Shown here: in pieces, positions 6,844 to 58,896 of the stretch
Position numbering within the stretch: position 1 is the first letter of the stretch
Layout of the letters: each line of letters begins with the position of its first letter
Source of the DNA: a virus
Virus record (IMG/VR): IMGVR_UViG_3300027741_000027
Coordinates: 32,001-96,000 of that record
Reading direction: 5' to 3' (one strand)
Length of the DNA: 64,000 bases
Position numbers and translations under genes: made by a program
The notes under the pieces: generated by a model
What the model saw: the letters and a program-made list of their open reading frames with translations, nothing else
Database searches by the model: none
What the model was told of the DNA's origin: nothing

Positions 6844-6863
6844 TACCTCAAAGAGGACTAGGA

Positions 6864-44608: not shown

Positions 44609-44948
44609 ATTATTTATAGTACCGGAAAAGGGACCCATTATATTTTAGGTACCAAAAGGGGACCCGCAACAACAGTAACTTGCAACACGCAAACACCCTA
44701 TAGGAAAAAATTATATTATTTTTTCAAAAGTTTACGATTGCCTAGCAAGGCAAAAGGGGACCCATTACTTTCTGTCGAAAGTAAGCCCGTAAGCAAAATC
44801 CCCCGCCTAGGGGGATAAAAAGAAGACTGCGGGTTACCCTATCCCCAGCTACAATAGGGACTCCTAAAGATCCTCAGGCTTTACCATACCTTTACTATTG
44901 GTATGATAGTGGGGGCGGGGCTGCTATGCCCCACCCTTTACCATCTCT

Positions 44949-45221
44949 TTACTTGCGGTCTACGTTCACGCTCAGGTCGAACGCTGCGTTAATCATGTTG
45001 ATGGCCTCACGCAGCATGTCGTCTACTGCGTCTACTGCATCTCTGCGTTGGTCGTGCTGGATAGTGATAGGGTGCCACTCATTCTTCTCTGTGTCCTTGA
45101 TGTAGTCTGTCTCGTCAAGGCTATGAACCAACGCCCATGTTTCCTGCTGTGCATCATGCACCATATCTAGGATGTTGTTGAGGCATGTTGTTGGGTCGTG
45201 GATGATCTTGGTCTTTGGCAT
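44949..45221 (-). CDS. Hypothetical protein
   Basis: Start reassigned to ATG 45221 (GAGAGGA SD) downstream of the boxed promoter. Confidence 0.65.
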   Translation of the reverse strand: MPKTKIIHDPTTCLNNILDMVHDAQQETWALVHSLDETDYIKDTEKNEWHPITIQHDQRRDAVDAVDDMLREAINMINAAFDLSVNVDRK

Positions 45222-45252: not shown

Positions 45253-45285
45253 ATCTTAGCAGGTGCTAGGTAAAGTAAAGGTAAA
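45253..45285 (-). promoter_or_regulatory. TTTAC-box promoter
   Basis: TTTACC-N5-TTTACC-N10-TAAGAT with TG extension. Confidence 0.7.
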
Positions 45286-45288
45286 GCT

Positions 45289-45528
45289 TTATGATCCCCA
45301 ACCGCGAGCCTGACCATACGGATCATTGACTTCACGGTATAGGCGCTGTTCTGCCTGCTCCTGAGCGTCTGCGGCGGCGGCGGCAGGGTCAGCGGCCTGT
45401 AGTGCTTCCTTTTTTGCCTGAGCGTCTCTAAGACGCTTTAGGGCTTCATCGTATGCCTGTTGATCCTGTGCGCGTCTCATATCGAACGCTGCATCAGTCA
45501 TCAGGTTTCTATAATCATTGATTGTCAT
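45289..45528 (-). CDS. Hypothetical protein (leaderless)
   Basis: 79 aa; ATG 6 nt after the -10 box. Confidence 0.7.
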   Translation of the reverse strand: MTINDYRNLMTDAAFDMRRAQDQQAYDEALKRLRDAQAKKEALQAADPAAAAADAQEQAEQRLYREVNDPYGQARGWGS

Positions 45529-45534
45529 GGATTC

Positions 45535-45567
45535 ATCCTAGCAGGTCGAAGGTAAAGGAAAGGCAAA
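45535..45567 (-). promoter_or_regulatory. TTTAC-box promoter
   Basis: TTTGCC-N5-TTTACC-N10-TAGGAT with TG extension. Confidence 0.7.
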
Positions 45568-45623
45568 ACATCTGTTGCATGTTGTGCAACACGATCCATC
45601 TGGTCCTTCCCGCCCACCCTGTA

Positions 45624-45667
45624 AGTGTATCGCCATCCGGCGGCGGCAAGAGTAAAGATATGGCAAA
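45624..45667 (-). promoter_or_regulatory. TTTAC-box promoter before a G-rich non-coding stretch
   Basis: TTTGCC-N5-TTTACT-N21-TACACT. Confidence 0.5.
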
Positions 45668-45708
45668 AGATTGGAGGGGGCGATTGGCACCCCCTCCGCT
45701 CTTGCTTG

Positions 45709-45978
45709 CTACGCTTTTGCTGCGAACCTGCGGCCCTTGTCTGTCAGGCCGTAGTAGTGGGCAGGGCGGCCACGCTTCTCGCTCTTGACCTTGCCTGTGA
45801 TCTTGACCAGACCGGCCTTCTGCATCCGTGTCATAAATGACGGGGCAACCTCAAGGCTCATGGCCGTTGCTTGGCCCTTCTGTGCCTTGATTGCTGCCAT
45901 TACAGTGGCGGCGTTGGCCTCACCGAAGATTGTGCGGTGGTGCTTGGTGGTCTTGGTGGTTGTCTTGGTTGATGGCAT
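45709..45978 (-). CDS. Winged-helix-like DNA-binding protein
   Basis: MTRMQKAGLVKITGKVKSEKRGRPAHYYGLTDKGRR, a typical wHTH wing (GRP..Y.LT..G); AAGGAG SD. Confidence 0.65.
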   Translation of the reverse strand: MPSTKTTTKTTKHHRTIFGEANAATVMAAIKAQKGQATAMSLEVAPSFMTRMQKAGLVKITGKVKSEKRGRPAHYYGLTDKGRRFAAKA

Positions 45979-46018
45979 TTGGATTATCTCCTTGTTGGTT
46001 GATTGCCTTGTGTTACAC

Positions 46019-46062
46019 ACTGTATCAAATGATTTGATATTGAAAGGTAAAAGGTAAGTAAA
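46019..46062 (-). promoter_or_regulatory. TTTAC-box promoter
   Basis: TTTACT-N5-TTTACC-N21-TACAGT with TG extension. Confidence 0.7.
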
Positions 46063-46074
46063 ATTTAGTCTTCG

Positions 46075-46269
46075 TCAAACGGGCATATTCTTTACGCCGT
46101 ACTGAATCGCCATCTGTAACCAATTCCAGTGAAGGGGGGCGTAAAGCTCTTGCGTTCTCTGGCAAGAATGGCGTAATCCGCAATTCCCGAATGGCATATG
46201 CCAATTGCCTTCTTCGCTGCTACTCCAATGTTCATACGGAGTCGGAGTCTTCTTTTTGTTGGGGTGCAT
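46075..46269 (-). CDS. Hypothetical protein
   Basis: Start reassigned to ATG 46269 (AGGAG SD). Confidence 0.6.
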   Translation of the reverse strand: MHPNKKKTPTPYEHWSSSEEGNWHMPFGNCGLRHSCQRTQELYAPLHWNWLQMAIQYGVKNMPV

Positions 46270-46297
46270 TCTTATCTCCTGATTGGTTGATAGAGTC

Positions 46298-46330
46298 ATA
46301 CTATCAGGTGCTAAGTAAAGAAAAAGTAAA
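46298..46330 (-). promoter_or_regulatory. TTTAC-box promoter
   Basis: TTTACT-N5-TTTACT-N10-TAGTAT with TG extension. Confidence 0.7.
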
Positions 46331-46375
46331 ACTTTCCCAATGCTTTTTACTGCCTTGTCCTCCCGCCCGCCCATC

Positions 46376-46418
46376 ATTATAACGACAGGCGGCGGGGCGC
46401 AAGCAAAGGTTAGGTAAA
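46376..46418 (-). promoter_or_regulatory. TTTAC-box promoter before a G-rich non-coding stretch
   Basis: TTTACC-N5-TTTGCT-N20-TATAAT. Confidence 0.55.
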
Positions 46419-46422
46419 GGGT

Positions 46423-46446
46423 GGAGGGGGCATTTCAGCCCCCTCC
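46423..46446 (-). terminator. Probable terminator hairpin
   Basis: GGAGGGGGC-6 nt-GCCCCCTCC downstream of the 46470-46730 gene. Confidence 0.55.
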
Positions 46447-46469
46447 GTGCCGCTCAACCAAACGGCAAA

Positions 46470-46730
46470 CTATGAAATCTCGTCCTGAAGCTCCCAAATC
46501 TCGATCTGATCGGGGTTCTGAGTCTGGAGGTTGGCAAAGTAATCGCCAATCGCCTCGTAGATCACGCGGCCCAGATCATCTTCGTTGATCTCTGACTCGT
46601 CTGGCGTGAACGGTGTCTTAGGCACCGCTACCAGAATCAGGCAATCTTCGTGAGCTTCTGCGTCCTGAGCAAGCTCATAGAAAGACTTAGGTGCTGCTTC
46701 GATCTTGTTACGACGGTTAAAGAACTTCAT
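46470..46730 (-). CDS. Hypothetical acidic protein
   Basis: 86 aa, AAGGAG SD. Confidence 0.7.
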   Translation of the reverse strand: MKFFNRRNKIEAAPKSFYELAQDAEAHEDCLILVAVPKTPFTPDESEINEDDLGRVIYEAIGDYFANLQTQNPDQIEIWELQDEIS

Positions 46731-46764
46731 GTGATTCTCCTTCGGTTGATTTACTGTGTTTCAC

Positions 46765-46807
46765 ACTCTAGCAGGTCAATTGGAGCTAAAGGTAAAGGAA
46801 TGGCAAA
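46765..46807 (-). promoter_or_regulatory. TTTAC-box promoter
   Basis: TTTGCC-N5-TTTACC-N20-TAGAGT with TG extension. Confidence 0.7.
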
Positions 46808-46821
46808 ACATTAAATTTGAT

Positions 46822-47134
46822 AAAGAAAGGGCCGGGATTGGGGAACTGTGAAATTCCTCTCCCGGCCCTAACTGTCGCATATGCTGGCTATACCTGCTCA
46901 GTGCGCCTATCTTCTGAGTCAGTCGGCTTTATAGCTGCCTTATCGCTGGACACTCTCTACTTTGAGTTCCGAACCCATGATAGCTGTATAGTCGTCTATC
47001 CACTGCACTCGCACCTATGTTAGCGTGGCATCTCATCACGGTCTGTTTTACGAGATTGCTACCGACTCTCGTTAGTCCTCTAACCGACCGTCGCCGGTCT
47101 GACTACATGGCCGATGGGCTAGCTCCATCAACAA
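46822..47134 (-). ncRNA. Candidate ~310-nt structured non-coding RNA of unknown family
   Basis: Has its own consensus promoter and a strong terminator (46822-46869), many nested stems, and no convincing ORF with an SD. Confidence 0.6.
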
Positions 47135-47139
47135 GAACA

Positions 47140-47184
47140 ACTATACAGATGGCCCCATATGAAGTCAAGTAAAGGTTTAGTAAA
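47140..47184 (-). promoter_or_regulatory. Consensus promoter plus TTTAC box for the ncRNA candidate
   Basis: TTGACT-17 nt-TATAGT, with TTTACT-N5-TTTACT abutting the -35. Confidence 0.75.
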
Positions 47185-47232
47185 GGATTTACCAATGCAA
47201 TGGATGGTCTTTGTTCCGCCCTCCCACCCTTC

Positions 47233-47275
47233 ATTATAGCAACAAAACCAATACGAAAAGTAAAGGTTTTGCAAA
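47233..47275 (-). promoter_or_regulatory. TTTAC-box promoter before a G-rich non-coding stretch
   Basis: TTTGCA-N5-TTTACT-N20-TATAAT with TG extension. Confidence 0.6.
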
Positions 47276-47474
47276 AAGCCTATAAAGTGGAAACAGAGAA
47301 AGGTGATGTATTCAGGGTTTTCTTTACTTTTCAGTAGTTTACCCGGATACTTTTCATATTATATAAAGGGGAATATTTTACTTTATATATATTGGTATAT
47401 TTCACTAGGGATATTCTTAGTCTTTTCCCTGCAAAATAAAGGTTTTTATTTTTATAAAATAATACAATAAATTG

Positions 47475-47518
47475 ATTATATCATATTTTTTCCATTTGTC
47501 AAGTAAATATTTGGTTAA
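47475..47518 (-). promoter_or_regulatory. Consensus promoter plus TTTAC box firing into the AT-rich region
   Basis: TTGACA-16 nt-TATAAT with TG extension; TTAACC-N5-TTTACT abutting the -35. Confidence 0.65.
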
Positions 47519-47658
47519 TACTTTACTTATGCCTTAGCTGCACAAAATACCATCACTGCACCTACAACTGCAAATAATACGGTCATAATTCCTTTCAGAT
47601 TGAATATTTTACTTATAAGTATGAATACTTTACTTATGATAAGGGATATATTACTTAT
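47515..47658 (+). repeat. Iteron-like direct repeats (T(G/T)AATA(C/T)TTTACTTAT family)
   Basis: TTACTTAT cores at 47523, 47609, 47630 and 47651; the last three have an exact 21-bp period. Confidence 0.7.
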
Positions 47659-47767
47659 CACCTATTATATACACGGGAGGAAGTGGGGGTGAGTGGAGGG
47701 GGGTGGATAGGTGAACAACCTCACATTGAGCCATTCCATTTGGATTGAAGCACCTCACCCTGCCACC

Positions 47768-47896
47768 TCACAATCCTGCATTCTTCATTTTTGCTTCCCA
47801 ATGCTTATCGTCAATCCATTTGTAAAACTTGAGCGAATTATCCCTCATAGACAGATATAGCTTTTCTTTTGCCTTATTTATTGTTTTCATTATCAT
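47768..47896 (-). CDS. Small hypothetical protein (42 aa), paralog family
   Basis: MIMKTINKAKEKLYLSMRDNSLKFYKWIDDKHWEAKMKNAGL; ATGA-coupled to the upstream gene. Confidence 0.5.
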   Translation of the reverse strand: MIMKTINKAKEKLYLSMRDNSLKFYKWIDDKHWEAKMKNAGL

Positions 47897-48129
47897 GCCC
47901 AAGCTCCCTTGTCTTTATTTCCAAATGGGCCGTTACATTCATCGCAAAAAATATAATCCTCCTCAGGGAATTTTTCTACAATTAAATGAATAGGGCCATC
48001 ATAAGCAATATTATTGCAATCAGGCATACGACACTCTCTAGAAGCTGGATAATCAAATGGCGCGGTTATATGAGTGCCAAGACTACCATCTATTTGATCG
48101 TCTACTATTGGGTCTATTTCTTTATTCAT
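47893..48129 (-). CDS. Small protein with CxxxxC/CxxC motifs
   Basis: 78 aa. Confidence 0.6.
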   Translation of the reverse strand: MNKEIDPIVDDQIDGSLGTHITAPFDYPASRECRMPDCNNIAYDGPIHLIVEKFPEEDYIFCDECNGPFGNKDKGAWA

Positions 48130-48334
48130 TGTTATTCTTTTTTCTTGTCAATAGTTCTAGCCTATGACTCCATAGGTCTATAACCAAAGTATATATGGGC
48201 GAAATAACTGCTCGTCTTTCTGGCAGTAATGCTTCCGCCTTTTGGAGATGAATACCAATAAGATGAAGTGATATATATTGGCGTTCAAATCGAAGGCCGA
48301 TTATTCTTTTCTTTGTATTTATTGTTTTATTCAT
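48122..48334 (-). CDS. Hypothetical protein
   Basis: 70 aa. Confidence 0.55.
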   Translation of the reverse strand: MNKTINTKKRIIGLRFERQYISLHLIGIHLQKAEALLPERRAVISPIYTLVIDLWSHRLELLTRKKNNNE

Positions 48335-48425
48335 TGTTATTTCTTTCTTATTGTTTTATATGTATTCTGGGGATAATCTGAGGGATGATTATGGGCGATT
48401 ATCAGTATAGCCAACTGTCGTGAGT

Positions 48426-48662
48426 CTAGGCATCTAGCTCCTCCCACTTTTCTTTTTCTTTTAGGTCTGTGGTATACATTGCGAAACCGAATAGGCCGAA
48501 CCTCACACGAATATACTTTTCATATGAATTAGTTGTTCGACGGTATACGCCAAATAAATCTTTCAATAAAGCAAGCACCTTTCGGAAAAGACGAGTACGC
48601 CCTGCCCAAACAATCTTGATTTCTTTATTCTTTGTTTTATATATTGTTTTATCTATTTCCAT
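48426..48662 (-). CDS. Hypothetical basic protein
   Basis: Start reassigned to ATG 48662 (AAGGA SD). Confidence 0.55.
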   Translation of the reverse strand: MEIDKTIYKTKNKEIKIVWAGRTRLFRKVLALLKDLFGVYRRTTNSYEKYIRVRFGLFGFAMYTTDLKEKEKWEELDA

Positions 48663-48691
48663 TGTGTTTTCCTTTGTTATTCTGAGATAGG

Positions 48692-48874
48692 TTATCGGCG
48701 ATCTCTTTTGTCTATTGAGGCCGATATTCTTTTCCATTTAGCTTTATCCATTGACAGATAGCTCCACTTGCCAATCCGATCAGCGTACAGGGCAATCTTC
48801 AAATAAATCTTTTCTTTTATGGTGGCCGATTTGATTCTTGCCTCGCATTTAGCTTCCCATATTACTTTATTCAT
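48692..48874 (-). CDS. Small hypothetical protein, paralog family
   Basis: KEKIYLKIALYADRIGKWSYLSMDKAKW. Confidence 0.55.
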   Translation of the reverse strand: MNKVIWEAKCEARIKSATIKEKIYLKIALYADRIGKWSYLSMDKAKWKRISASIDKRDRR

Positions 48875-49049
48875 TGTTATCCTTTTTTGCCCATGAATCT
48901 AGGTCGTACTTATCAACATTAGCAATCATGCGCTCAGTATTTCTTTTCTTATCACCTGCCGCATCCCAAAACTTTTTATCGCTCCAAGTGTAAACTCTAA
49001 ACGAATAATTGCAAATGAAATCGTATGTTCTTTTCTTTATATTAGTCAT
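48867..49049 (-). CDS. Small hypothetical protein, paralog family
   Basis: KKRTYDFICNYSFRVYTWSDKKFW. Confidence 0.55.
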   Translation of the reverse strand: MTNIKKRTYDFICNYSFRVYTWSDKKFWDAAGDKKRNTERMIANVDKYDLDSWAKKDNNE

Positions 49050-49291
49050 TATTCCTGTATATTTCTTTTTTGATTACATCTGTTTGCTTCTCAGGCCGAT
49101 TTTCTTTATTTTATATAAAGATTGCCTGCTCACTTCATTATATCAAAGATGTTCACTTATATCTATTATGTAACAAATGTTACATATAAAATAAAGTGCA
49201 AAAAAGAGAGGGCTTGCGCCCCCTCTCAAACTCTATCCTGCTGCCCACATCACACTTATAAGTATGATAAATAAGAATAAAGCAATGCCGA

Positions 49292-49489
49292 TCATTCGGC
49301 CCTCCACTTACCGTCGCGCCAGATGTATCCCCAATCACTCATTTCTTCGTGATCTTCGTCAGTGCAACGACAGGTGCCATCGCCACTGTAATGATCTGGC
49401 ATAAGAATAAAGTAATCACAGGCCATGACTTCTTTGCGGGCGATTTCTTTATTTACAAACATTGCGTCAAGCAGATTTACTCGTCCCAT
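49292..49489 (-). CDS. Hypothetical protein
   Basis: 65 aa, GGAGG SD; a terminator-like GAGAGGG hairpin lies downstream near 49206-49227. Confidence 0.65.
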   Translation of the reverse strand: MGRVNLLDAMFVNKEIARKEVMACDYFILMPDHYSGDGTCRCTDEDHEEMSDWGYIWRDGKWRAE

Positions 49490-49519
49490 TTGGGAACCTC
49501 CTGATTAGTTGATGTAACC

Positions 49520-49552
49520 ATCGTAGCAAATGCTAGGTAAAGAACGAGTAAA
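49520..49552 (-). promoter_or_regulatory. TTTAC-box promoter
   Basis: TTTACT-N5-TTTACC-N10-TACGAT with TG extension. Confidence 0.7.
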
Positions 49553-49554
49553 AC

Positions 49555-49713
49555 CTACTCCTCAATTTCGATAATATCGGCACACTCGCCATCTTCATTG
49601 ACTAGGATAGCTTCTCTATGGCCGTCCATCACAAGGTCATACGCTTGCTCAGTAGAGTCAGCTTCGACCTCCCAATACTTTCTAATTACTTCTGTAACTT
49701 CGTATCTAGGCAT
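49555..49713 (-). CDS. DpnD/PcfM-like small protein (52 aa, below cutoff)
   Basis: Hand translation MPRYEVTEVIRKYWEVEADSTEQAYDLV...; paralog of the next gene. Confidence 0.6.
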   Translation of the reverse strand: MPRYEVTEVIRKYWEVEADSTEQAYDLVMDGHREAILVNEDGECADIIEIEE

Positions 49714-49924
49714 TAGTTACCTCCTGAATCATCCAATCATAATTTTCAATGTAATTAAAAGCGTTATCAAGGTAATCATCCATTACGCAAGAATACTCTA
49801 GCTTACCTTCGACAACATCTCCACCGCCGTCAATAATACTTTTGATAGCTTCACGCTCATTTTCAGCCTCTACAGTGACCGTCTGATAGTGAAGCTCCGG
49901 CACCAATACTTCGTACTTAGGCAT
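49706..49924 (-). CDS. DpnD/PcfM-like small protein
   Basis: MPKYEVLVPELHYQTVTVEAENEREAI. Confidence 0.6.
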   Translation of the reverse strand: MPKYEVLVPELHYQTVTVEAENEREAIKSIIDGGGDVVEGKLEYSCVMDDYLDNAFNYIENYDWMIQEVTNA

Positions 49925-49927
49925 TAG

Positions 49928-50146
49928 TTACGCCCGATCCCAGACGGGCCAATCGGCAGATTCGGCAATGTCAAGAACATTGTCAATAATTCCTTTTGCG
50001 TCAATTGGATTCCAAGACTCGTCATACACATCCGGCATATCGGGCAAGAAGATGTTTTCGTACTCCTGCAATACGCGAACCACCTCATTAGTTTCGGTGT
50101 CCACGAATACCGTGACGGGAACCATATACTGAACCGCTGCTTCCAT
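49928..50146 (-). CDS. Small acidic protein, paralog of 53689-53910
   Basis: VQY.VPV.VFV.TET.EV.RVL...DIAE..DWP.WD.A; GGAGG SD. Confidence 0.7.
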   Translation of the reverse strand: MEAAVQYMVPVTVFVDTETNEVVRVLQEYENIFLPDMPDVYDESWNPIDAKGIIDNVLDIAESADWPVWDRA

Positions 50147-50240
50147 AACTGCCTCCTATTTGGTTGATTGCAATATAGGGCGGGGCTGTACGCCACCCCG
50201 CCCTTTTCTTTTAGCCGGGATTCTCACCCTGTCTACGATC

Positions 50241-50273
50241 AGTCTAGCAAATCGAATGTAAAGGAAGGGTAAA
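50241..50273 (-). promoter_or_regulatory. TTTAC-box promoter
   Basis: TTTACC-N5-TTTACA-N10-TAGACT with TG extension. Confidence 0.7.
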
Positions 50274-50282
50274 ACTATGAAA

Positions 50283-50501
50283 CTATTTACTTTTGTAATT
50301 GACTGCTTCTGCAAACACTCCATCGCCGTCCCAAAGACTAATGAGGAAGGCATATTTCCACAGACAAAGCACAAAGCTACGAACTACATAATCACCATCA
50401 TTACTTTTTTGACGATAGAGTGTCACTCCTACGTTTCGCATAATTTGATGATTTTCATGCCAACGAACTTGCAATTCTTTATTTTTGATGTTGAATTTCA
50501 T
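50283..50501 (-). CDS. Hypothetical protein
   Basis: Start reassigned to ATG 50501 (ATGA overlap). Confidence 0.55.
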   Translation of the reverse strand: MKFNIKNKELQVRWHENHQIMRNVGVTLYRQKSNDGDYVVRSFVLCLWKYAFLISLWDGDGVFAEAVNYKSK

Positions 50502-50812
50502 TTGTTTACCGATTTGTGAAGTGTGGTCAAGACGACCCATTTGTTTTCTTTTTTATCAAAAACAACAGGGCAAACTATATGACCTCTGTTTAATAAAAGA
50601 TAATGGGAAGTAGAACGCCGACCTCTGACCCAGCTTGGTTTCTTTTCTTTTGGCACAATAATAACATTGCGAAGATAGCCGGTACGCTTGATCCCCATAT
50701 GAGAGATTTCATTTATGATTCTCTCTTGATCTAAGCTCACGGGCAAGACTCTACCATAGTATCGCTCAATGGCGTGATGTGTAAATATAAGTTGTTCAGG
50801 TTTGACTTGCAT
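50498..50812 (-). CDS. Possible BECR-fold (DUF4258/RelE-like) ribonuclease
   Basis: LIFTHHAIERYYGRV...CPVVFD...WVVLTTL. Confidence 0.45.
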   Translation of the reverse strand: MQVKPEQLIFTHHAIERYYGRVLPVSLDQERIINEISHMGIKRTGYLRNVIIVPKEKKPSWVRGRRSTSHYLLLNRGHIVCPVVFDKKENKWVVLTTLHKSVNK

Positions 50813-50827
50813 TACTTTTTATAAAAC

Positions 50828-51028
50828 CTATCCTATGAATGACACTAGCAGGGCCGTAGATGCCATAGACCAAACTATAGCGATTCCTATGCGGTGCCTA
50901 GTGTGCTTACAGAACCCGCGAGCGTAGTAGCCACCCAATGCGGCTAGACCCTCAAAGCCAAGATGCAAAATATAATCAACTAATAATTTATTTATAGCCC
51001 ATCTCCTTCTTATCCCAATATTCATCAT
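50828..51028 (-). CDS. Small membrane protein
   Basis: Two hydrophobic segments. Confidence 0.5.
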   Translation of the reverse strand: MMNIGIRRRWAINKLLVDYILHLGFEGLAALGGYYARGFCKHTRHRIGIAIVWSMASTALLVSFIG

Positions 51029-51115
51029 GGCTTCTGAAATAGTTATCTATGGCCCAATAATATGTTTTATTAGCGATCCGCGCTATCTTTTGATAAACTT
51101 TTCGTTTAATATATA

Positions 51116-51352
51116 TCATATAAAATATCCAAGTGCCTTCTGAACCTTGTCGTCCCATCCGTAGTCAATCCTTCGCCCGTAATGCTCTCTAAGCGCATCA
51201 CGCTTCTCAGGCATATTAACATAGACGTTACAAGCCTTTAGAGACTCTGAATGATTGCCAGCCACATATGCCGGGTCGAAGATGACTTCATCATCATCAT
51301 CAACGACAATCCAGCGATCAGAAGGGTATTTATTTCCTGTTACAACTCTCAT
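51116..51352 (-). CDS. Hypothetical protein
   Basis: 78 aa. Confidence 0.6.
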   Translation of the reverse strand: MRVVTGNKYPSDRWIVVDDDDEVIFDPAYVAGNHSESLKACNVYVNMPEKRDALREHYGRRIDYGWDDKVQKALGYFI

Positions 51353-51518
51353 CTTTAAACTTTACTAATTCGATATTTATTGTGATGATTGGTAGGCCGA
51401 TTTCAAGCCCGGTGTATTTGGTGCCGCGCTTAGTGTCGAACCTGTAGCTCCTGAGCATTAAGCCAAACTGCCAGCCAATTGCAGAGTCAATCCAAACTGT
51501 ATATTTTCCAATACTCAT
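51330..51518 (-). CDS. Hypothetical protein
   Basis: 62 aa. Confidence 0.55.
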   Translation of the reverse strand: MSIGKYTVWIDSAIGWQFGLMLRSYRFDTKRGTKYTGLEIGLPIITINIELVKFKDESCNRK

Positions 51519-51654
51519 TTTTTATTTGGCTTCCATCTACGAAACGGGTTACAAATAATTATGCAAGGGCAGCTATCATATTCTTTGTTATCGCCAAAAG
51601 CGGAAAAGGTTGTACCGACGTACCAGAACCTATTATCAAATAAAAATTTACGCA

Positions 51655-51873
51655 TCACGCCTCCACAACTCTTGAGAGGGAGGCGGCTTCGGCATCACGA
51701 AGGATGGCAAGCTGCTCCTGAGCTACCTCTACAAGCATAGCTGCGTGTTGGATCTCCTTAGAGTCCATCAGGCTCTCAGCACCGGACAGATGAACTGAAT
51801 CACTGTCGTCCATGTAAGCGATGGCCCTAAGACCGAAATCGCCAACTACTTCTACTTTGATTAGGTAATCCAT
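51655..51873 (-). CDS. Hypothetical protein
   Basis: Start reassigned to ATG 51873 (AAGGAG SD); extended -10 TGCTACAGT at 51908-51916 without a TTTAC box. Confidence 0.65.
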   Translation of the reverse strand: MDYLIKVEVVGDFGLRAIAYMDDSDSVHLSGAESLMDSKEIQHAAMLVEVAQEQLAILRDAEAASLSRVVEA

Positions 51874-52094
51874 TGTTAGTTCTCCTTTGATTCGATTGCG
51901 TAAGAACACTGTAGCAGGTTCTCAGGCGTTCATAGATTTGGGTGCATGATCTTTATTAGAAAGCAATACAACGCTGCGATTACTTTATTCATCATCTTCG
52001 TCATTGTTTCTACTTAGCAAGATCAACACAAGCGTCATAATTGTTACATAAAGTATGGTTAAACCTGCTGCCATTGTGACAAAGTGCATTTCGA

Positions 52095-52313
52095 TCACTC
52101 CTCTTCATTCTTGCAATGAGCGCACCACGGACGGTCGCAATCAGCAATTCTTATTGTATTACCATTTGTGCGTAGTGGGCTTACCCACCAATCAACATCA
52201 GATTCATTTTCCCATACTTCGATAGCATCGTCTGTCGTTGCATAAGGGCCATAGACGGTAATCCCATTCAAGGGATCGCCAACTACTACCACCACTCCAT
52301 TTGTATCAGTCAT
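52095..52313 (-). CDS. Small acidic YGPY-motif protein
   Basis: VVVVGDPLNGITVYGPYATTDDA; related to 55303-55548. Confidence 0.65.
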   Translation of the reverse strand: MTDTNGVVVVVGDPLNGITVYGPYATTDDAIEVWENESDVDWWVSPLRTNGNTIRIADCDRPWCAHCKNEEE

Positions 52314-52563
52314 TACTTTCTACCTTCCATGTAAAGCCAGCCTGATCGAGGTAGGTATCACCACGACGTAGGGCCAGCAGAGCGCTATTAATAATTGCGG
52401 CACGATCAACTGCGTAGACCTCAGGATCATCGTCCTCGTCCACGTTCAGCAACAGCAGAGTCTCTTCTGCTGCATCAGCAACAACTGACAGGAACTCGTC
52501 ATCGCCATGAAAAACGTATCCGCCTTCTGCCCCGTCATTGCTATAAAAAACAAGCTCAGTCAT
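52306..52563 (-). CDS. Small acidic hypothetical protein
   Basis: 85 aa, coupled to its neighbours. Confidence 0.65.
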   Translation of the reverse strand: MTELVFYSNDGAEGGYVFHGDDEFLSVVADAAEETLLLLNVDEDDDPEVYAVDRAAIINSALLALRRGDTYLDQAGFTWKVESND

Positions 52564-52798
52564 TTTCTTTTTTATTCTCCAATATTCCTTCTACAGTATC
52601 AATCACTGATTGCAATGATTGTGTTTTATTGATTTTAGCTTTCGCTACGTTGAGCCTAGCAAATCCTTCATAGCTATTCAAGTTCTGAATAGCGAACGTC
52701 AGATCCTCTAGGCCGTTCTCTACGCTTTTGTGAATGCCGTACAGGACAACCTCCATCTCGTCAATCACATCTTGTATTTCGTGCTTTTCGTAACTCAA
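52556..52798 (-). CDS. Hypothetical protein
   Basis: 80 aa, TTG start with AAGGA SD. Confidence 0.6.
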   Translation of the reverse strand: MSYEKHEIQDVIDEMEVVLYGIHKSVENGLEDLTFAIQNLNSYEGFARLNVAKAKINKTQSLQSVIDTVEGILENKKEND

Positions 52799-52968
52799 TT
52801 TTTTCCTTTAGCTTCTCTGGTGTCCAATTTTTATACTCAAAAAGAGCGTTGATGCGCTCTTTTTCTTTTGCTTTATCTGATTTCTTTTTATTAGCCATAA
52901 ACGGTGACGGCGACTACCCCCTTTGACAGAAAATAGTCGCCGCATTGTTTAACTATTGCGTCAAATGC

Positions 52969-53658
52969 TTACCATGCAGTGAAGATGTCTTCATAATCCT
53001 GCTGCAACGTTGAGAGGCTCAACTGCTGCTGCGGCTTATATCCAGCAAGCGCAATCGTATCTTCTCGCGTAACAGCCCTTTCTTCGTCCAACTTAGTCAG
53101 ATTTACAAAAGTGCCATTATTGACTCTATCCCTAATCGTAGAAAAAGCACTGCTTCTAGGATTGTCGGTATTAGAATAATCACAATTATCATGCAAGAGG
53201 TCAGCAAGATCGCCAGCAATCACGGTGTCATTATTAGCAAAATAATTGTTAATAAACTCTTCACGCTTCATTCTTTCTAGCTTGCGAGCAGGCTTACGAT
53301 TACTAGACTTTTCATCAATGTATACCTTTAGATCTTCCTCAAAAACGTGAAGCCTTCCATTAACTTTAATGTTGCGTAAAACTCCACGATTTGCATAACG
53401 CTCAATAGTTTTTTTACTTCTATTCGCCTTTTCAGCCGCCTTTTCGTAATCACAAACACTGAGCGGTTCGTGTGACCGATTGATAATCGCATCAATCCTG
53501 TCAGACAAAGTTTCACTAGCCGACTGATCTAGCAAACCCCTCTTGGTCAAAATATCATTCATATTTTTTGCAAAATAAGTTTTCTGTTCCTCTGTCAGAA
53601 CATCAATAACTTTTATCTCAATGGTTGTCAAAACATCATCTACATCTGAGTAATTCAT
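52969..53658 (-). CDS. Helix-turn-helix DNA-binding protein (excisionase/MerR-like)
   Basis: YEKAAEKANRSKKTIERYANRGVL...NGRLHVFEEDL; AAGGAG SD. Confidence 0.7.
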   Translation of the reverse strand: MNYSDVDDVLTTIEIKVIDVLTEEQKTYFAKNMNDILTKRGLLDQSASETLSDRIDAIINRSHEPLSVCDYEKAAEKANRSKKTIERYANRGVLRNIKVNGRLHVFEEDLKVYIDEKSSNRKPARKLERMKREEFINNYFANNDTVIAGDLADLLHDNCDYSNTDNPRSSAFSTIRDRVNNGTFVNLTKLDEERAVTREDTIALAGYKPQQQLSLSTLQQDYEDIFTAW

Positions 53659-53688
53659 TGTGTCTCCTTATACTTTTATATTAATTGA

Positions 53689-53910
53689 TTATGCTTGATC
53701 CCAAGCGGGCCAATCATAAGTCTCAGCGATATCAAGGGCGGCTGCTTCAACACCATCGTTCGTCACAGGTTGCCAATCTGTAGTGTCCACTACAGTCTCA
53801 GCCTTGTTCAGTTCGATGTTTTGAGTTTCCAGCAGAACCCTGTCTACCTCGCCCGTCTCAGTGTTTACAAATACTGATACAGGAACTGTGTATTGCACTA
53901 CGACTTCCAT
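53689..53910 (-). CDS. Small acidic protein, paralog of 49928-50146
   Basis: Clearly alignable by eye over its full length. Confidence 0.7.
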   Translation of the reverse strand: MEVVVQYTVPVSVFVNTETGEVDRVLLETQNIELNKAETVVDTTDWQPVTNDGVEAAALDIAETYDWPAWDQA

Positions 53911-53940
53911 CACTTCTCCCTCTGTTGGTTTGTAATAACT

Positions 53941-53973
53941 ACTCTAGCAAACTGATGGTAAAGAACAGGCAAA
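53941..53973 (-). promoter_or_regulatory. TTTAC-box promoter
   Basis: TTTGCC-N5-TTTACC-N10-TAGAGT with TG extension. Confidence 0.7.
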
Positions 53974-53975
53974 AC

Positions 53976-54248
53976 CTATTCAGTGTCCAGAGCGTGAATC
54001 TCTGTAAGCCGCTCTGCGATCTTATCAAGATCCTTTGGTGTCTCTTCGATAGGAAGAAACGGATCGTCATGGTCAATAATTGTTAGAATAAGTTTCTCAT
54101 CATCTGAGGCTGTATCAACAATAAAGTTTGCTGTCTTGCCGATGATCGAAACTTCTCCTGAGTCAGTCACCTTAGCTTCGTATGGTGTCATCATGGAAAT
54201 ATATCCTGCCACCATGTTGTCCACTACTTCCTGATTAGTCATTGTCAT
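53976..54248 (-). CDS. Hypothetical acidic protein
   Basis: 90 aa, coupled. Confidence 0.65.
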   Translation of the reverse strand: MTMTNQEVVDNMVAGYISMMTPYEAKVTDSGEVSIIGKTANFIVDTASDDEKLILTIIDHDDPFLPIEETPKDLDKIAERLTEIHALDTE

Positions 54249-54474
54249 ATCTTTCTTCCATTAGGTCAAGCCCGAACCTGAGTAGCAGCTTCGATGCAGC
54301 AATGAGTTTAGCAGACTTATCAAGCTCTGCCTCTGCTAGCTCAGGATCAATCGTTAGCATACTCTTGGCGAATTCATTTCTTTGAACAACACCGCGATTG
54401 ATTTCTTTTGTCGCGGTGTTGAGTGCGCCTAGCACATCGTCAAGCCTAGTATCCGTATGCGCAATAATTGTCAC
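54235..54474 (-). CDS. Hypothetical protein
   Basis: 79 aa, GTG start. Confidence 0.6.
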   Translation of the reverse strand: MTIIAHTDTRLDDVLGALNTATKEINRGVVQRNEFAKSMLTIDPELAEAELDKSAKLIAASKLLLRFGLDLMEERYDND

Positions 54475-54653
54475 TTGCCATCCCTCACAGGATCGTGCTT
54501 AGGTGGCTTGGTACCCATAAACGCCGGGTGCATCGTGCGAGCCACAGGGCGCGGCACATCAAGCATATGATTCTGCTTGTAGATCGTTACAGGTTGGCCC
54601 GCCATCTGCGCATGATCCAGAGCGGCCTTCCACTGATTCATAAAATCACTCAT
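54471..54653 (-). CDS. Hypothetical protein
   Basis: 60 aa, AAGGA SD. Confidence 0.6.
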   Translation of the reverse strand: MSDFMNQWKAALDHAQMAGQPVTIYKQNHMLDVPRPVARTMHPAFMGTKPPKHDPVRDGK

Positions 54654-54667
54654 TTGTTTTCCTTTGT

Positions 54668-55030
54668 TTAGTACCTGAATAGGTAGTTGTTGCCTTGAAA
54701 TTCTACATCGGTGTAATCATAACGAAGTTCGTCTGCTGCTGCCGACCAATCAATATGAGTGGCAGGCCAAGTTGTTTCGTCATCAATGGCTCCGATATCG
54801 TGAGCAAATTCTTTGGCGTAATCCTCAAAATAATCTTCATCAATAAAATATACGCTATCCCGATCTGCTTCTTCTAGCGTGATGCCCATATCAGATTCAA
54901 GCTCAATAAGCTCATTAAGCTCTTCTTGCAGATTTTCTTTTTCGAGAGGAAGAAGGGTGTTTTCTTCTACATTATTTTGTAGAAGCTCAGTAAGTTCTAC
55001 CTTGCGATTAAGTAGTGCATTAATATCCAT
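54668..55030 (-). CDS. ArdA-like acidic antirestriction (DNA-mimic) protein
   Basis: YFIDEDYFEDYAKEFAHDIG...WPATHIDWSAAADEL..DYTDVEF; very acidic; start reassigned to ATG 55030. Confidence 0.6.
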   Translation of the reverse strand: MDINALLNRKVELTELLQNNVEENTLLPLEKENLQEELNELIELESDMGITLEEADRDSVYFIDEDYFEDYAKEFAHDIGAIDDETTWPATHIDWSAAADELRYDYTDVEFQGNNYLFRY

Positions 55031-55059
55031 TACGATCTCCTTAGTTGGTTGTTGCAATC

Positions 55060-55092
55060 AGCATAGCAAATCAAGGGTAAAGACTTAGTAAA
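55060..55092 (-). promoter_or_regulatory. TTTAC-box promoter
   Basis: TTTACT-N5-TTTACC-N10-TATGCT with TG extension. Confidence 0.7.
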
Positions 55093-55094
55093 AC

Positions 55095-55310
55095 CTAATC
55101 CTTGTCCTCGCTAAAGTCAGGAAGCGGATCCGCAAAGTGAGTCATGTACATATCCACTGCCTGCTTGACCTGATTGTAAAGACTAGCAGCATGAGGTTCT
55201 ACAAAAGCATCATACTTTTCATTCCACTCAATGCCTTCATCCTGAGCCTGCTGGAAATAACTATCGCTAACATAATCTTCGATAGCTTTGTAAATATTAT
55301 TGTCAGTCAT
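55095..55310 (-). CDS. Hypothetical acidic protein
   Basis: Start reassigned to ATG 55310. Confidence 0.6.
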   Translation of the reverse strand: MTDNNIYKAIEDYVSDSYFQQAQDEGIEWNEKYDAFVEPHAASLYNQVKQAVDMYMTHFADPLPDFSEDKD

Positions 55311-55548
55311 TCTTGTCCCCCTCTGATTTAATATTGAATGGAATGGTTGTCTCTGCATCTGTAATAAAACTAATCTCAGCCCATTCGATTGAATCCTCGT
55401 TATAGATTCCGACAATTCGGGCTACGTCATCGTTGTCGTCTGTGTGCTGCTCTACGGCCTCCTGAAAGCTGCTGTAAGGGCCGTACTGCCCTAGCGTATC
55501 GGGATTGTCAGAAGCAGGGCCATTGAGCAATAGAGCGTATACTTTCAT
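55303..55548 (-). CDS. Small acidic YGPY-motif protein
   Basis: GQYGPYSSFQEAVE; GGAG SD. Confidence 0.65.
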   Translation of the reverse strand: MKVYALLLNGPASDNPDTLGQYGPYSSFQEAVEQHTDDNDDVARIVGIYNEDSIEWAEISFITDAETTIPFNIKSEGDKND

Positions 55549-55560
55549 CATTGTCTCCTA

Positions 55561-56157
55561 TCAAGTGTGAACGTCACAGGTAAGGATAGCAAGCCCGAAG
55601 TCCTCGCCATCAGTTAGGTCAAAGGTACGCGCCGTGTAAGGCGAAAACTGATAAGCATTAAAGAACGGCGGAGTAAAATACTTATCATTAAGCTGCTCAT
55701 AAACCCTAGCAAGGTTAGGACGAACCGATAGCCTCCAAGAATCAATGCCATCATCGGTGCCTGCGTAGCTAGCTGCAAGAGCCTCACGAATAGTTTGGGC
55801 AGCTTCATCAGTAGATTTAAACTTATACTGATAATTATGATCGCCCTCAGTCAGAACGCGAAGATCGTTGCCGATATCCCAATACATACAATTGTATGCA
55901 GACTTCATAGCGGCATCGTAGTCCCAGCTATCACGATCATCAACCCAAGAGTCAAAGCCGCCGCGATAGGTGTCATCACTAATCACTGCCTCGCCATCCT
56001 TGACGGCTAGGGCAAGAGGTGTGTACCAATTGTTATCGTCAAACTTATGCTCAACATAAGAACTAAATGCACCATGTTCAATTGCAAAGATACGTCCGTC
56101 CTGAACAATGTCGTCAGTGTCATCAATGTTAATAAGAAAATGCTGTAGAGCGTGAAT
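55561..56157 (-). CDS. Acidic hypothetical protein, probably initiating at ATT 56157
   Basis: The frame stays open 57 codons upstream of the GTG at 55986. GGAGG lies 8 nt before the ATT, with an in-frame TAG just upstream. Confidence 0.55.
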   Translation of the reverse strand: MHALQHFLINIDDTDDIVQDGRIFAIEHGAFSSYVEHKFDDNNWYTPLALAVKDGEAVISDDTYRGGFDSWVDDRDSWDYDAAMKSAYNCMYWDIGNDLRVLTEGDHNYQYKFKSTDEAAQTIREALAASYAGTDDGIDSWRLSVRPNLARVYEQLNDKYFTPPFFNAYQFSPYTARTFDLTDGEDFGLAILTCDVHT

Positions 56158-56198
56158 TGTAATCGCCTCCTATGGCGGTCTGTTTAGTCAGTAGATAC

Positions 56199-56241
56199 AA
56201 CTTAGCAGTTTCGCTTTTGTCTTGGGTAAAGGTTTGGTTAA
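56199..56241 (-). promoter_or_regulatory. TTTAC-box promoter
   Basis: TTAACC-N5-TTTACC-N20-TAAGTT with TG extension. Confidence 0.65.
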
Positions 56242-56423
56242 GACTTGCTCAACTTACGTTCGATGTACCTAACGAGAATATCAGCGTTAGCGATATCGCC
56301 CTCCATGTATTTAATCATCTCGTCGTTGTTGTCCTGAGTTTCTAGCGTATTTTGCAACTCCTCCGCATAACTATTTGCGATGCGGATAATTTCTTCTGCA
56401 ATATCATTCTCAATACTAATCAT
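56238..56423 (-). CDS. Hypothetical protein
   Basis: Start reassigned to ATG 56423 (ATGA overlap). Confidence 0.6.
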   Translation of the reverse strand: MISIENDIAEEIIRIANSYAEELQNTLETQDNNDEMIKYMEGDIANADILVRYIERKLSKS

Positions 56424-56803
56424 ACTTCCATCTCCTCGCAATTACAATCCCAATCCATATCCTCGCCGCAATCATCGCAAAGGCTATCATCCTCCTGTGG
56501 ATCAAAGTCAATCGTGAGGGTCTTGACCCTATTGCGATTGTCAAACTCTGCGTACACAGGGTACACACCGTCACCGTACAAGGTGCCACAGGCGATAGCA
56601 AGGTTCTCAAGCTGTCCGTAACCATTGCTACTCAGAGTTGCGTTGCAGCAACCATCGTAATTCATTTCGTATGATGAACTTGGCTTATTCTTAGTGCTAG
56701 TGTCAAATTCTTTTACAAAGTCTGCATTGATGTAGCAGGGGTCAATAATCATAATCTGGCCTGAGTCTACCGCGACCTGACCGATAAGTGTCTTTGTAGT
56801 CAT
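56420..56803 (-). CDS. DUF4241-like protein
   Basis: IGQVAVDSGQIMIIDPCY...TLYGDGVYPVY; start reassigned to ATG 56803 (AAGGAG SD). Confidence 0.7.
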   Translation of the reverse strand: MTTKTLIGQVAVDSGQIMIIDPCYINADFVKEFDTSTKNKPSSSYEMNYDGCCNATLSSNGYGQLENLAIACGTLYGDGVYPVYAEFDNRNRVKTLTIDFDPQEDDSLCDDCGEDMDWDCNCEEMEV

Positions 56804-56840
56804 TGTGTTTCTCCTTGTTTTGTGTTCAACAACTGAATAC

Positions 56841-56883
56841 AACATAGCAAACCGTTTCACCGCTTGGGTAAAGACTTGGCAAA
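56841..56883 (-). promoter_or_regulatory. TTTAC-box promoter
   Basis: TTTGCC-N5-TTTACC-N20-TATGTT with TG extension. Confidence 0.7.
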
Positions 56884-56885
56884 AC

Positions 56886-57194
56886 CTACGTTCCCCGAAT
56901 GGTGGCACCCTTTAGAGGCCAACCCTGACACACCTTCACAGTGACATTCTTTCCAACTGGATTATTTGCTGTAAAAGTAAACAGGACTGTATCACCCTTG
57001 CCGCAACCCTTGAATCCAACAAATATAGAATCGCGGTCAATAAGTTTTACATTAGTAAATCCATTGGTCACAAGGGTATTCTCTGCCACCCTCTGATCTG
57101 CAAACTGTCCAAACGCACAACCCGCAAACAAAACAAAAACAATAGCTACGAGGGTTCCAACCCATGTATATTTATCTTTGATATTTCTTTTCAT
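56886..57194 (-). CDS. Membrane-anchored/exported small protein
   Basis: N-terminal TM helix; GC...D...F.A.NP.G..V...VC.G..KG.TIR family pattern. Confidence 0.65.
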   Translation of the reverse strand: MKRNIKDKYTWVGTLVAIVFVLFAGCAFGQFADQRVAENTLVTNGFTNVKLIDRDSIFVGFKGCGKGDTVLFTFTANNPVGKNVTVKVCQGWPLKGATIRGT

Positions 57195-57619
57195 TAGTAA
57201 AGGTGTCCTGATCTAGAGAATGGGTCTTGCATGATCTTAGCTCGCATCTTCTCAAGATCAGCAAGGTCGTTGTGAGAGCGTTCTGCCCTGTGATTAGTCA
57301 GTTGGTCTTGGATATAGCGCAGCTTGGACACGGTATGCGGCCTAGCGTCAGTGGAATACCTATCGGGGACGCTCACGGTCATGCGAGGGTCACGGATAAC
57401 AGACTCAACCCGTTCAGACCACTCCTGTTCCTCCTGAGACTTCTTATTGGCCTTAGCAGCGTGAGCCGCTTGGATTCCAGTGATGGTAACAGGGGCAGAA
57501 GTGCCTGTGATTACTTTTTCTTCTGTATGTTCGGGACAGTTGAGAGGTAAACGACCGCGCTGTGCGGCTCTCTGCCACTCATGGTTCCCTGCTTGGCAAT
57601 GCAATGTTTTCATAGTCAT
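57194..57619 (-). CDS. Hypothetical protein with an N-terminal C/H metal-binding motif (leaderless)
   Basis: CQAGNHEW...CPEH; ATG 6 nt after the -10 box. Confidence 0.65.
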   Translation of the reverse strand: MTMKTLHCQAGNHEWQRAAQRGRLPLNCPEHTEEKVITGTSAPVTITGIQAAHAAKANKKSQEEQEWSERVESVIRDPRMTVSVPDRYSTDARPHTVSKLRYIQDQLTNHRAERSHNDLADLEKMRAKIMQDPFSRSGHLY

Positions 57620-57625
57620 AAGTTT

Positions 57626-57668
57626 ACCTTAGCACACTTGATTACTTTTTAAGTAAAGACTTAGTAAA
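57626..57668 (-). promoter_or_regulatory. TTTAC-box promoter
   Basis: TTTACT-N5-TTTACT-N20-TAAGGT with TG extension. Confidence 0.7.
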
Positions 57669-58741: not shown

Positions 58742-58896
58742 TTGCTGCTCCTTTGTTTTGTTGTATTCAACTGCTGAACAGGAGTGTAGCAGCTATTTCA
58801 TCATTGAAGAGGATTTTACCAAGATTTTACCTTTCGATATGATTCTGGCTTGATTAATCTTATTAAAATAAGAAAAACAAATCTTTAATTAATACA

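Follow-up and report, generated by a model that had tools for sequence, protein, structure and literature searches.

The window analysed here is a stretch of 64,000 nucleotides, comprising bases 32001-96000 of the 136-kb linear IMG/VR virus record IMGVR_UViG_3300027741_000027, which is estimated to be 85% complete. The window has a GC content of ~42%, and between 44.9 and 58.7 kb every credible gene is small, lies on the minus strand and carries a strong Shine-Dalgarno site. This small-gene island holds ~38 proteins, most of them without a recognised domain, is followed downstream by structural genes on the same strand, and probably represents the early genes of the phage. A total of 17 minus-strand promoters were found in the island, in which two TTTAC-type boxes, repeated directly with a period of 11 bp, precede a -10 hexamer (TAnnnT) at one of two distances. 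The gap is counted from the proximal-box C to the T of the -10; gaps of 11 and 21-23 correspond to the 10 and 20-22 nt of a first-pass annotation of this DNA, which counted after the 6-mer. Four related phage contigs (G001-G004), located via the DUF932 protein that adjoins the island and via the motif itself, were compared with this phage (W). The 17 box promoters are as follows.

57626..57668 (-): gap 21; TTTACTAAGTCTTTAC, then TGcTAAGGT; 141-aa gene 57194-57619, leaderless, with its ATG 6 nt after the -10
56841..56883 (-): gap 21; TTTGCCAAGTCTTTAC, then TGcTATGTT; drives gene 56420-56803 (DUF4241-like)
56199..56241 (-): gap 21; distal TTAAC; TGcTAAGTT; long leader before gene 55561-55986
55060..55092 (-): gap 11; TTTGCTATGCT, in which a third 'unit', TTTGC, belongs to the extended -10; gene 54668-55030
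53941..53973 (-): gap 11; TTTGCTAGAGT; gene 53689-53913
50241..50273 (-): gap 11; TTTGCTAGACT; leader and GC hairpin before gene 49928-50146
49520..49552 (-): gap 11; TTTGCTACGAT; gene 49292-49489
47475..47518 (-): gap 22; distal TTAAC; boxes abut a full consensus TTGACA-16-TATAAT
47233..47275 (-): gap 21; TGcTATAAT; predicted transcript 5' end is the G-rich GGGTGGGAGGG (47219-47229)
47140..47184 (-): gap 23; boxes abut TTGACT-17-TATAGT; without a downstream protein gene
46765..46807 (-): gap 21; TGcTAGAGT; gene 46470-46730
46376..46418 (-): gap 21; TATAAT; G-rich start GGGCGGGCGGG (46362-46372)
46298..46330 (-): gap 11; TGaTAGTAT; gene 46075-46269
46019..46062 (-): gap 22; TGaTACAGT; PadR-like winged-helix gene 45709-45978
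45624..45667 (-): gap 22; TACACT; G-rich start GGGTGGGCGGG (45609-45619)
45535..45567 (-): gap 11; TGcTAGGAT; gene 45289-45528, leaderless, with its ATG 6 nt after the -10
45253..45285 (-): gap 11; TGcTAAGAT; gene 44949-45221, the last of the island

The box pairs are phase-locked to the -10 far beyond chance. The pattern TTTRC-N6-TTTRC occurs 22 times in the window, as against 1.4 expected from shuffled sequence, and 22 of the 24 occurrences in the whole 136-kb record fall within window positions 44.8-58.8 kb. The 11-bp period was the only one enriched, with 22 pairs in the island as against 0-4 at each other spacing from 5 to 29, and a pattern search for the gap-11 form alone returned 7 matches where 0.04 were expected. 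A rescan with one mismatch allowed recovered exactly the 17 minus-strand elements with TAnnnT that the first-pass annotation had reported, seven with a gap of 11, ten with a gap of 21-23 and none with a gap of 12-20, and its coordinates of 45253-57668 proved to be the exact outer limits. Its further observations were reproduced as well: TTAAC is the distal unit in two elements (56241 and 47518), TG is present at -15/-14 in 14/17, and 15/17 are without a -35-like hexamer, the other two being 47518 (TTGACA-16-TATAAT) and 47184 (TTGACT-17-TATAGT), both abutted by the boxes. A seeming third unit, TTTGC, in four of the gap-11 elements is the TG-extended -10 itself (TTTGCTAnnnT). With the -10 placed at -12 to -7, the two 11-nt units of the short-gap class span about -41 to -20. 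The statement that the boxes head nearly every cassette is generous, given a box-free stretch of 3.7 kb (50.3-53.9 kb) and box-less extended -10 promoters at ~58790, 51913 and 49142.

The assignment of the -10 and of the predicted start site is supported by the ATG found 6 nt past the -10 at 57619 and 45528, and likewise in G002, G003 and G004, as in leaderless mRNA that starts ~7 nt after the -10. Such leaderless starts fit an actinobacterial-type host, and so do the G that closes TAnnnTG and the common occurrence of hexamers of the TAGRRT type, judged by corynebacterial and streptomycete promoters. The major capsid protein has ~50% identity with its counterparts in Mycobacterium cluster C myoviruses, Rhodococcus phage Finch and Gordonia phages, with actinobacterial hosts given for 223/226 records that match it, and the relatives of the adjoining DUF932 protein are mostly from actinophages too. 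The capsid kinship and the leaderless genes are both in keeping with an actinobacterial host, and the phage, uncultured and from a lake, is akin to the mycobacterial myoviruses. No match to the island was obtained among the cultured phages searched at near-identity, nor to the window in Rfam, and a comparison of the phage ThyX with genome contigs for host assignment returned only a distant archaeal match.

Three more box pairs were detected on the plus strand, all without the 11/21 spacing; the two at the end of the island are kept in G001 and G004, again without that spacing to a conserved -10.

44880-44895 and 44937-44952 (+): box pairs of opposite orientation, flanking the terminator hairpin 44912-44936 at the 3' end of the island
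58815..58843 (+): box pair in a divergent region, with the distal unit at canonical -35 distance (TTTACC-17-TATGAT), facing the plus-strand genes; not kept in G001

These pairs bear on whether the boxes might be read by the holoenzyme itself, as -35-like hexamers or UP-like elements contacted by sigma region 4 or by the C-terminal domain of alpha. TTTACC does resemble TTGACA, plus-strand pairs stand at the canonical distance (TTTACC-17-TATGAT at 58815 and TTTACC-16-TATGAT at 44880), and the boxes of the gap 21-23 class lie at about -39 and -50, where the UP subsites of E. coli are located. However, the boxes of the dominant class stand 10 and 21 nt from the -10, which leaves no workable -35 spacer, and position -28 falls within the spacer, a region not bound by alpha; canonical -35/-10 combinations were not enriched when the island was scanned (41 vs 35.7 expected), and some conserved box pairs have no promoter. 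The same module on cellular contigs, described below, is moreover associated with regulator-kinase operons and with genes for stress or transport, not with genes at large, and recognition by the holoenzyme alone is on balance quite unlikely. Four other readings of the motif, namely SigF-type GTTT-N15-17-GGGTA, Bacteroidetes TTTG/TAnnTTTG, ECF-type promoters and Lsr2-type AT-rich binding, were rejected by eye because the -10 is a TG-extended TAnnnT, the repeat is exactly 11 bp and the Shine-Dalgarno sites are strong.

In all four related phages, the boxes are clustered in the homologous island and lie on the gene strand. The five genomes pooled contain 56 elements with a gap of 11 or 12, 16 with a gap of 21-23 and none with a gap of 13-20, and their consensus, a.gtTTTACc...TCTTTACc.t..a.cTGcTA.g.TG, has low information at the 3-4 positions between the boxes and at the 8 positions before the TG. 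The short gap is genome-specific, being 11 in 45/45 elements of W, G001, G002 and G004 and 12 in 11/11 of G003, where the spacer sequences are mutually unrelated. Orthologous promoters differ by 10 bp, with W 57668, 56883 and 56241 having a gap of 21 where G001 has 11, and W 46418 a gap of 21 where G004 has 11. A further 13 lake contigs of the clade, recovered in the metagenome scan described below, contain 69 pairs outside the search pattern, with gaps of 11 (35 pairs), 21-23 (18) and 33 (4) and almost none between. Since the only indels that persist amount to about one helical turn or multiples of it, they bear the signature of a box-bound protein that must face the polymerase, and the 10-bp ortholog indels together with the uniform gap of G003 reveal a spacing under selection, as expected of a stereospecific polymerase contact. 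The pair is probably a binding site in its own right, because conserved pairs exist without a correctly spaced -10. Overall, the feature is real, conserved and under selection; these comparative data strengthen the first-pass proposal of direct repeats with an 11-bp period, in helical phase with an extended -10 and in place of a -35, and scanning the full record and its relatives, beyond placing 22/24 pairs in the island, found the regulon kept in the four relatives and the 13 lake contigs.

The comparison also bears on two readings in which no activator is involved. In the first, the repeats would be a functionless by-product of repeated duplication of promoter cassettes. The leaders do share CAACCAA..AGGAG and GTAYKCAGCAGTT, so promoter-leader cassettes have evidently spread by duplication; but the sequence between and after the boxes is near random, boxes and gap are kept across five phages and 13 contigs, and the indels come only in multiples of ~10 bp, which makes this reading extremely improbable. 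In the second, the boxes would be operators of a repressor that shuts the early promoters off, either a phage middle product or a lysogeny repressor, comparable to the stoperators of cluster A. It would account for the boxing of every early promoter, including two with a perfect consensus that need no activation, for the overlap of the boxes with the polymerase-occupied region, and for the roadblock-like placing of the opposite-orientation pairs around the terminator at the island end. A repressor acting by occlusion, however, has no need of a fixed gap, of gap classes at 11, 21-23 and 33 that leave the values in between empty, or of 10-bp indels separating orthologous promoters; the cellular copies front autoregulated regulator operons, a layout typical of activators, and no conserved repressor candidate was found. 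We consider a repressor rather improbable.

Beyond the clade, the full module is almost confined to these phages in IMG/VR, with one outsider, G005, a complete 68.7-kb phage with 55% GC that has no detectable protein in common with the present one. Five tandem TTTACGC units stand there in a divergent intergenic region (L028, G005:50000-58000, ~3776-3824, -), with a gap of 11 to TGcTATGCTG, and just upstream of this array GTCTTCATAAT is repeated three times, alongside a series of GGTCT-type repeats. A general occurrence of the module among phages was considered and rejected: the triple TTTAC arrays present in IMG/VR are mostly 11-bp iteron-like repeats of unrelated phages, without a -10 at gap 11 or 12.

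A metagenome scan with the full module, TTTAC-N5-CTTTAC-N8-TGnTAnnnTG, returned at least 80 loci. Among those listed, 13 belong to phage relatives, and many of the rest lie inside long reading frames and are presumably due to chance. The module was, nevertheless, found in intergenic position upstream of the following genes.

L168: OmpR-family response regulator
L170, L194: HtrA-type proteases
L171: RND pump
L189, L225, L230: MacB/FtsX permeases
L223: SHOCT membrane protein
L175, L181: small secreted proteins
L234 9976-10009 (-): kdpA, on a contig with 63% GC; TTTACGTGGTCTTTAC, gap 11, TGcTAGCCT, 27 nt before the ATG

The L234 site can be read from its sequence and placing as a KdpE-type site at class II position. 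When the same loci were searched for more exact box pairs with no -10 required, TAnnnT was present at gap 11 in 5/5. The pairs at L171 5367 and L181 7127 lie directly before regulator-kinase operons (regions 5367-7240 and 5233-7140, respectively, which include the pairs) with almost no leader, the L181 operon being followed by alkaline-phosphatase-like (PhoA-like) and PstS-like genes, while those at L194 5338 and L202 12364 precede further small secreted proteins. As the pairs front regulator or regulator-kinase genes in L168, L171 and L181, cellular two-component systems of the OmpR family appear to use the same module, including for autoregulation. On the cellular contigs L168, L171, L175, L181, L189, L194, L202, L225 and L230, TTTACC-N5-TTTACC at a distance of 11 nt from the -10 seems to mark a hitherto undescribed two-component regulon. 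The regulator-kinase operons have no genes in common with the phage.

Taken together, the 17 elements are proposed to form a conserved promoter class of the small-gene island that depends on a response regulator of the OmpR/PhoB family supplied by the host. The motif, its phasing, its conservation, the genome-specific spacing and the cellular copies are seen directly in the sequences; the kind of binder, and activation through its binding, are what we infer. The phage class has the sequence-level features of OmpR/PhoB-type sigma-adaptation promoters, for which regulator binding and dependence are predicted. In the proposed mechanism, the extended -10 (TGnTAnnnTG), usually without a -35, would be read by the host RNA polymerase with its primary sigma factor, and the two TTTAC(C/T) boxes, which have an 11-bp period and lie on one helix face at about -28/-39 (gap 11) or -39/-50 (gap 21-23), would be occupied by a head-to-tail dimer of the winged-helix regulator. 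From -28/-39, this dimer would take over the contact between the -35 and sigma region 4, like PhoB, mycobacterial PhoP and SARP, and from -39/-50 it would act from just upstream, like OmpR. A host two-component system, either one active in nutrient-poor lake water or one induced by infection, would in this way boost or gate the first transcription of the phage. The proposal names the family of the regulator and not the member, since KdpE-like, PhoP-like and envelope-stress types all fit as candidates.

A number of points weigh against this proposal. The module-bearing cellular contigs have 50-63% GC as against 42% in the phage, and the nearest regulator cluster in the Atlas, 'commonest Actinomycetota', is a lead only; the cellular module is known from metagenome contigs. 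Two elements have a full consensus -35/-10 and should need no activator, and the box-less extended -10 promoters imply that the polymerase can work without boxes. A lytic programme that relies on a stress or nutrient regulator of the host would be risky for the phage, and a published warning holds that Pho-box calls made in phages from sequence alone are unreliable (PMC10976474). The near-confinement of the full module to one phage clade in IMG/VR also speaks against a host regulator, as does the nearest cultured relative, Rhodococcus phage Finch, in which no periodic 5-mer pair was found in the two thirds of the genome scanned, those outside 50-90 kb. Finally, a phage factor that evolves fast or co-evolves would account more readily for the 12-nt gap that all G003 promoters share. 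Because of these limits and this counter-evidence, we regard the dependence on a host regulator, although the reading we favour over the others, as evenly balanced between right and wrong.

The last three points would favour a DNA-binding activator or sigma appropriator of unrecognised fold encoded by the phage, an analogue of T4 MotA/AsiA or phi29 p4; G003, with its genome-wide gap of 12 as against 11 elsewhere, suggests a co-evolving partner. Such a factor could be supplied first from the box-less, basal extended -10 promoters, or be injected, and as most island proteins have no known domain, there is room for a novel DNA binder. However, six-frame family searches of the phage record and its relatives revealed no Trans_reg_C (OmpR-type), Response_reg, WhiB or sigma region 2 domain, and no MotCF or AsiA match was obtained in G000, G001, G002, G004 and G005, in a search that had no positive control and covered records 61-85% complete. 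A weak, sub-threshold helix-turn-helix resembling sigma region 4 was located outside the window. Only 2 of the ~38 island proteins have a DNA-binding signature, a PadR/AspA-like winged helix (45709-45978) and an HTH_17 protein (52969-53658), and comparison of the conserved island proteins with Pfam, PHROG, PDB sequences and the ESM Atlas revealed no DNA-binding candidate beyond these two. Both are poor candidates, the HTH_17 protein being absent from the relatives and the PadR-like protein having a more plausible target in the palindrome at 49168-49185. It further counts against a phage factor that the same box, 11-nt gap and TG-extended -10 occur on cellular contigs before regulator-kinase operons that have no genes in common with the phage, and that the unrelated G005 has the module with no detectable protein in common. 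Hence, where the first-pass annotation had left the choice between a host regulator and a phage activator, the former gains from the cellular module before OmpR-family operons and for the latter no known domain was found; a phage-encoded factor is judged unlikely.

The palindrome, ATGTAACA-N2-TGTTACAT (49168-49185), is perfect, lies over the box-less extended -10 promoter TGATATAAT (window 49137-49185, -) and is kept in G002. It is likely the operator of the PadR/AspA-like protein, and with it a second, separate regulatory circuit.

If a host response regulator does bind the boxes, the whole early programme of a freshwater actinophage clade might be wired to this single regulator and start efficiently only when its pathway is on, an extension that we put forward tentatively and hold to be somewhat doubtful. 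In one version, injection of the phage DNA would cause a leak of potassium or damage to the envelope, and this would activate a KdpE-like or envelope-stress regulator, infection thereby setting off its own early promoters; in another, a PhoP-like regulator would be permanently active in phosphorus-poor lakes. In addition, 17-20 strong sites per genome copy would titrate the regulator off the regulon of the host itself. Binding by a host regulator would couple infection to host signalling (potassium, phosphate or envelope stress) and bear on the viral control of abundant freshwater actinobacteria, and the boxes would offer a way to find the regulon of the host, perhaps even the host, as well as a compact set of tunable promoters for use in low-GC actinobacteria.

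The early promoters of phages are usually regarded as strong, factor-independent copies of host promoters, and activator-dependent phage classes, such as the T4 middle promoters, rely on phage proteins. The use of host response regulators by phages is, to our knowledge, limited to a few auxiliary genes, and we know of no description, nor was one found in the literature searched, of a phage early regulon built on such boxes. What is seen here is a whole, probably early island, in a lake-wide clade, with boxes of response-regulator geometry whose helical phase is visibly under selection. The gaps of 11, 12, 21-23 and 33 nt form a natural series, in effect an experiment on how spacing relates to class II as compared with class I activation.

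Several other features accompany the box promoters. The DUF932 gene before the island (57755-58741, -) has a box-less TGCTACACT promoter in this phage, with an inverted box pair 26 nt upstream of the -10, and a regular box promoter in G003. The sequence GGGnGGGnGGG occurs only three times in the window (47219-47229, 46362-46372 and 45609-45619, -), each time directly past the -10 of a long-gap promoter, and a second box promoter stands 90-100 nt downstream of each of the three, the two making up a tandem pair. Comparable G-rich starts follow box promoters in G001, G002, G003 and G004; a short G-rich RNA, a quadruplex and a Shine-Dalgarno-like decoy are among the possibilities. Just 5' of the start codon, CAAC(C/T)AA-N1-8-RGGAG is present in five minus-strand leaders (45988-46001, 46276-46289, 49498-49511, 50153-50166 and 55037-55051), and this CAACCAA motif may be a translation enhancer, while the GTAYKCAGCAGTT that the relatives have in common stands directly past the -10. 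The transcript from 50273 (50170-50240, -) would begin with a leader, CAGGGTGAGAATCCCG, kept in the metagenome relatives L191 and L214 and followed by a GC-rich hairpin, which makes it a candidate attenuator or small RNA. A terminator hairpin at 45673-45697 ends inside the distal box of the 45624..45667 promoter. Beyond the hairpin 44912-44936, ~100 nt of non-coding sequence are near-invariant in W, G001 and G004 and end in a second terminator (44798-44816), and the zone 44798-44952 may be a small RNA gene or a zone of protein-assisted termination.

Among known systems, the PHO-box promoters of E. coli PhoB and of Streptomyces and Mycobacterium PhoP resemble the class in sequence and geometry. 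The PHO box consists of two 11-nt direct repeat units, each with 7 conserved and 4 variable positions (PMC4415409), and the phage units are likewise 11 nt long, direct, and with ~7 conserved and 4 variable positions (gtTTTACc and TCTTTACc, with 3-4 variable positions between). A PHO box takes the place of the -35 or overlaps it, its end being ~10 nt from the -10, which holds for the gap-11 class (7/17 here and 56/72 pooled), and 15/17 phage elements have no -35-like hexamer; mycobacterial PhoP dimers displace the contact between the -35 and sigma R4 (PMC11825685). Extra boxes can sit further upstream in phase (PMC4415409, PMC11825685), and the gap 21-23 class of the phage, one turn further upstream, resembles OmpR sites in this respect. 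The phage core, CTTTACC, is close to the Streptomyces GTTCACC and also to the cyanobacterial PyTTAAPyPy(T/A) (PMC10976474). In contrast to PHO-box promoters, the phage boxes head ~17 early cassettes and not phosphate genes, one third of the elements have no box at -28, and the sequence is unlike every published PHO consensus. The likeness to the GlnR box (AC-n9-AC) drawn in the first-pass annotation is too loose to serve as evidence.

The sites closest by sequence among those published are those of KdpE, the E. coli pair being almost the phage TTTACY-N5-TTTACC. The KdpE site of E. coli K-12 lies 43 nt before TACCCT, which we take to be the kdp -10, and 43 equals 11 + 32, that is, the same helical face. 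In E. coli, TTTATA and TTTACA make up the two half-sites, 5 bp apart (PMC3264566), and when these are written as TTTAYA-N5-TTTACA, the phage boxes match 5/6 positions per half-site. The 22-bp KdpE site of M. smegmatis contains GTAAAG, the complement of CTTTAC (PMC5401905); the complement of TCTTTACG lies within it, and its reverse complement reads ...GTTTCTTTACGG, 7/8 identical to the proximal TCTTTACC of the phage (PMC5401905). However, KdpE normally controls one operon, its E. coli site lies far upstream without overlapping the -35, and the phage sites are not at a kdp operon.

In SARP promoters (AfsR/afsS), the afs box spans -40 to -19 and the repeats are 11 or 22 bp apart (PMC10936776). 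These promoters resemble the phage class, as proposed here, in their direct repeats of 11/22 bp, side-by-side dimer, sigma adaptation, actinobacterial setting and weak -35 (PMC10936776), but the 3' repeat of SARP sites is 8 bp from the -10, and the phage distance comes close without equalling it, at 10-11 nt when counted from the TTTACC hexamer and 9-10 when counted from a heptamer. SARPs also control antibiotic gene clusters, and neither Trans_reg_C nor a SARP/BTAD-type protein was found in the phage records.

With T4 middle promoters, the phage class shares a box in the -30 region in place of a -35, before a TAnnnT -10 that is often TG-extended, and the earlier label 'MotA-like' is apt as a functional analogy. 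The defining features of MotA promoters differ, however: T4 has a single 9-bp box near -30 as against two boxes 11 bp apart, the phage sequence is unrelated to TGCTTtA, and the T4 class is middle rather than early and depends on phage MotA and AsiA, domains of which were not found here.

A precedent for a phage that tunes its own transcription through response-regulator sites of the host, as proposed here from sequence, is given by the cyanophage genes under host PhoBR (P-SSM2 pstS and S-PM2d; PMC10976474). There, a few auxiliary genes respond to phosphate stress through degenerate boxes, whereas in this phage conserved, phase-locked pairs head most island promoters. The stoperators of cluster A mycobacteriophages, finally, are single asymmetric 13-bp sites in one orientation genome-wide that are not tied to a -10, whereas the sites of this phage are paired, confined to one island and locked to the -10 at fixed gaps.

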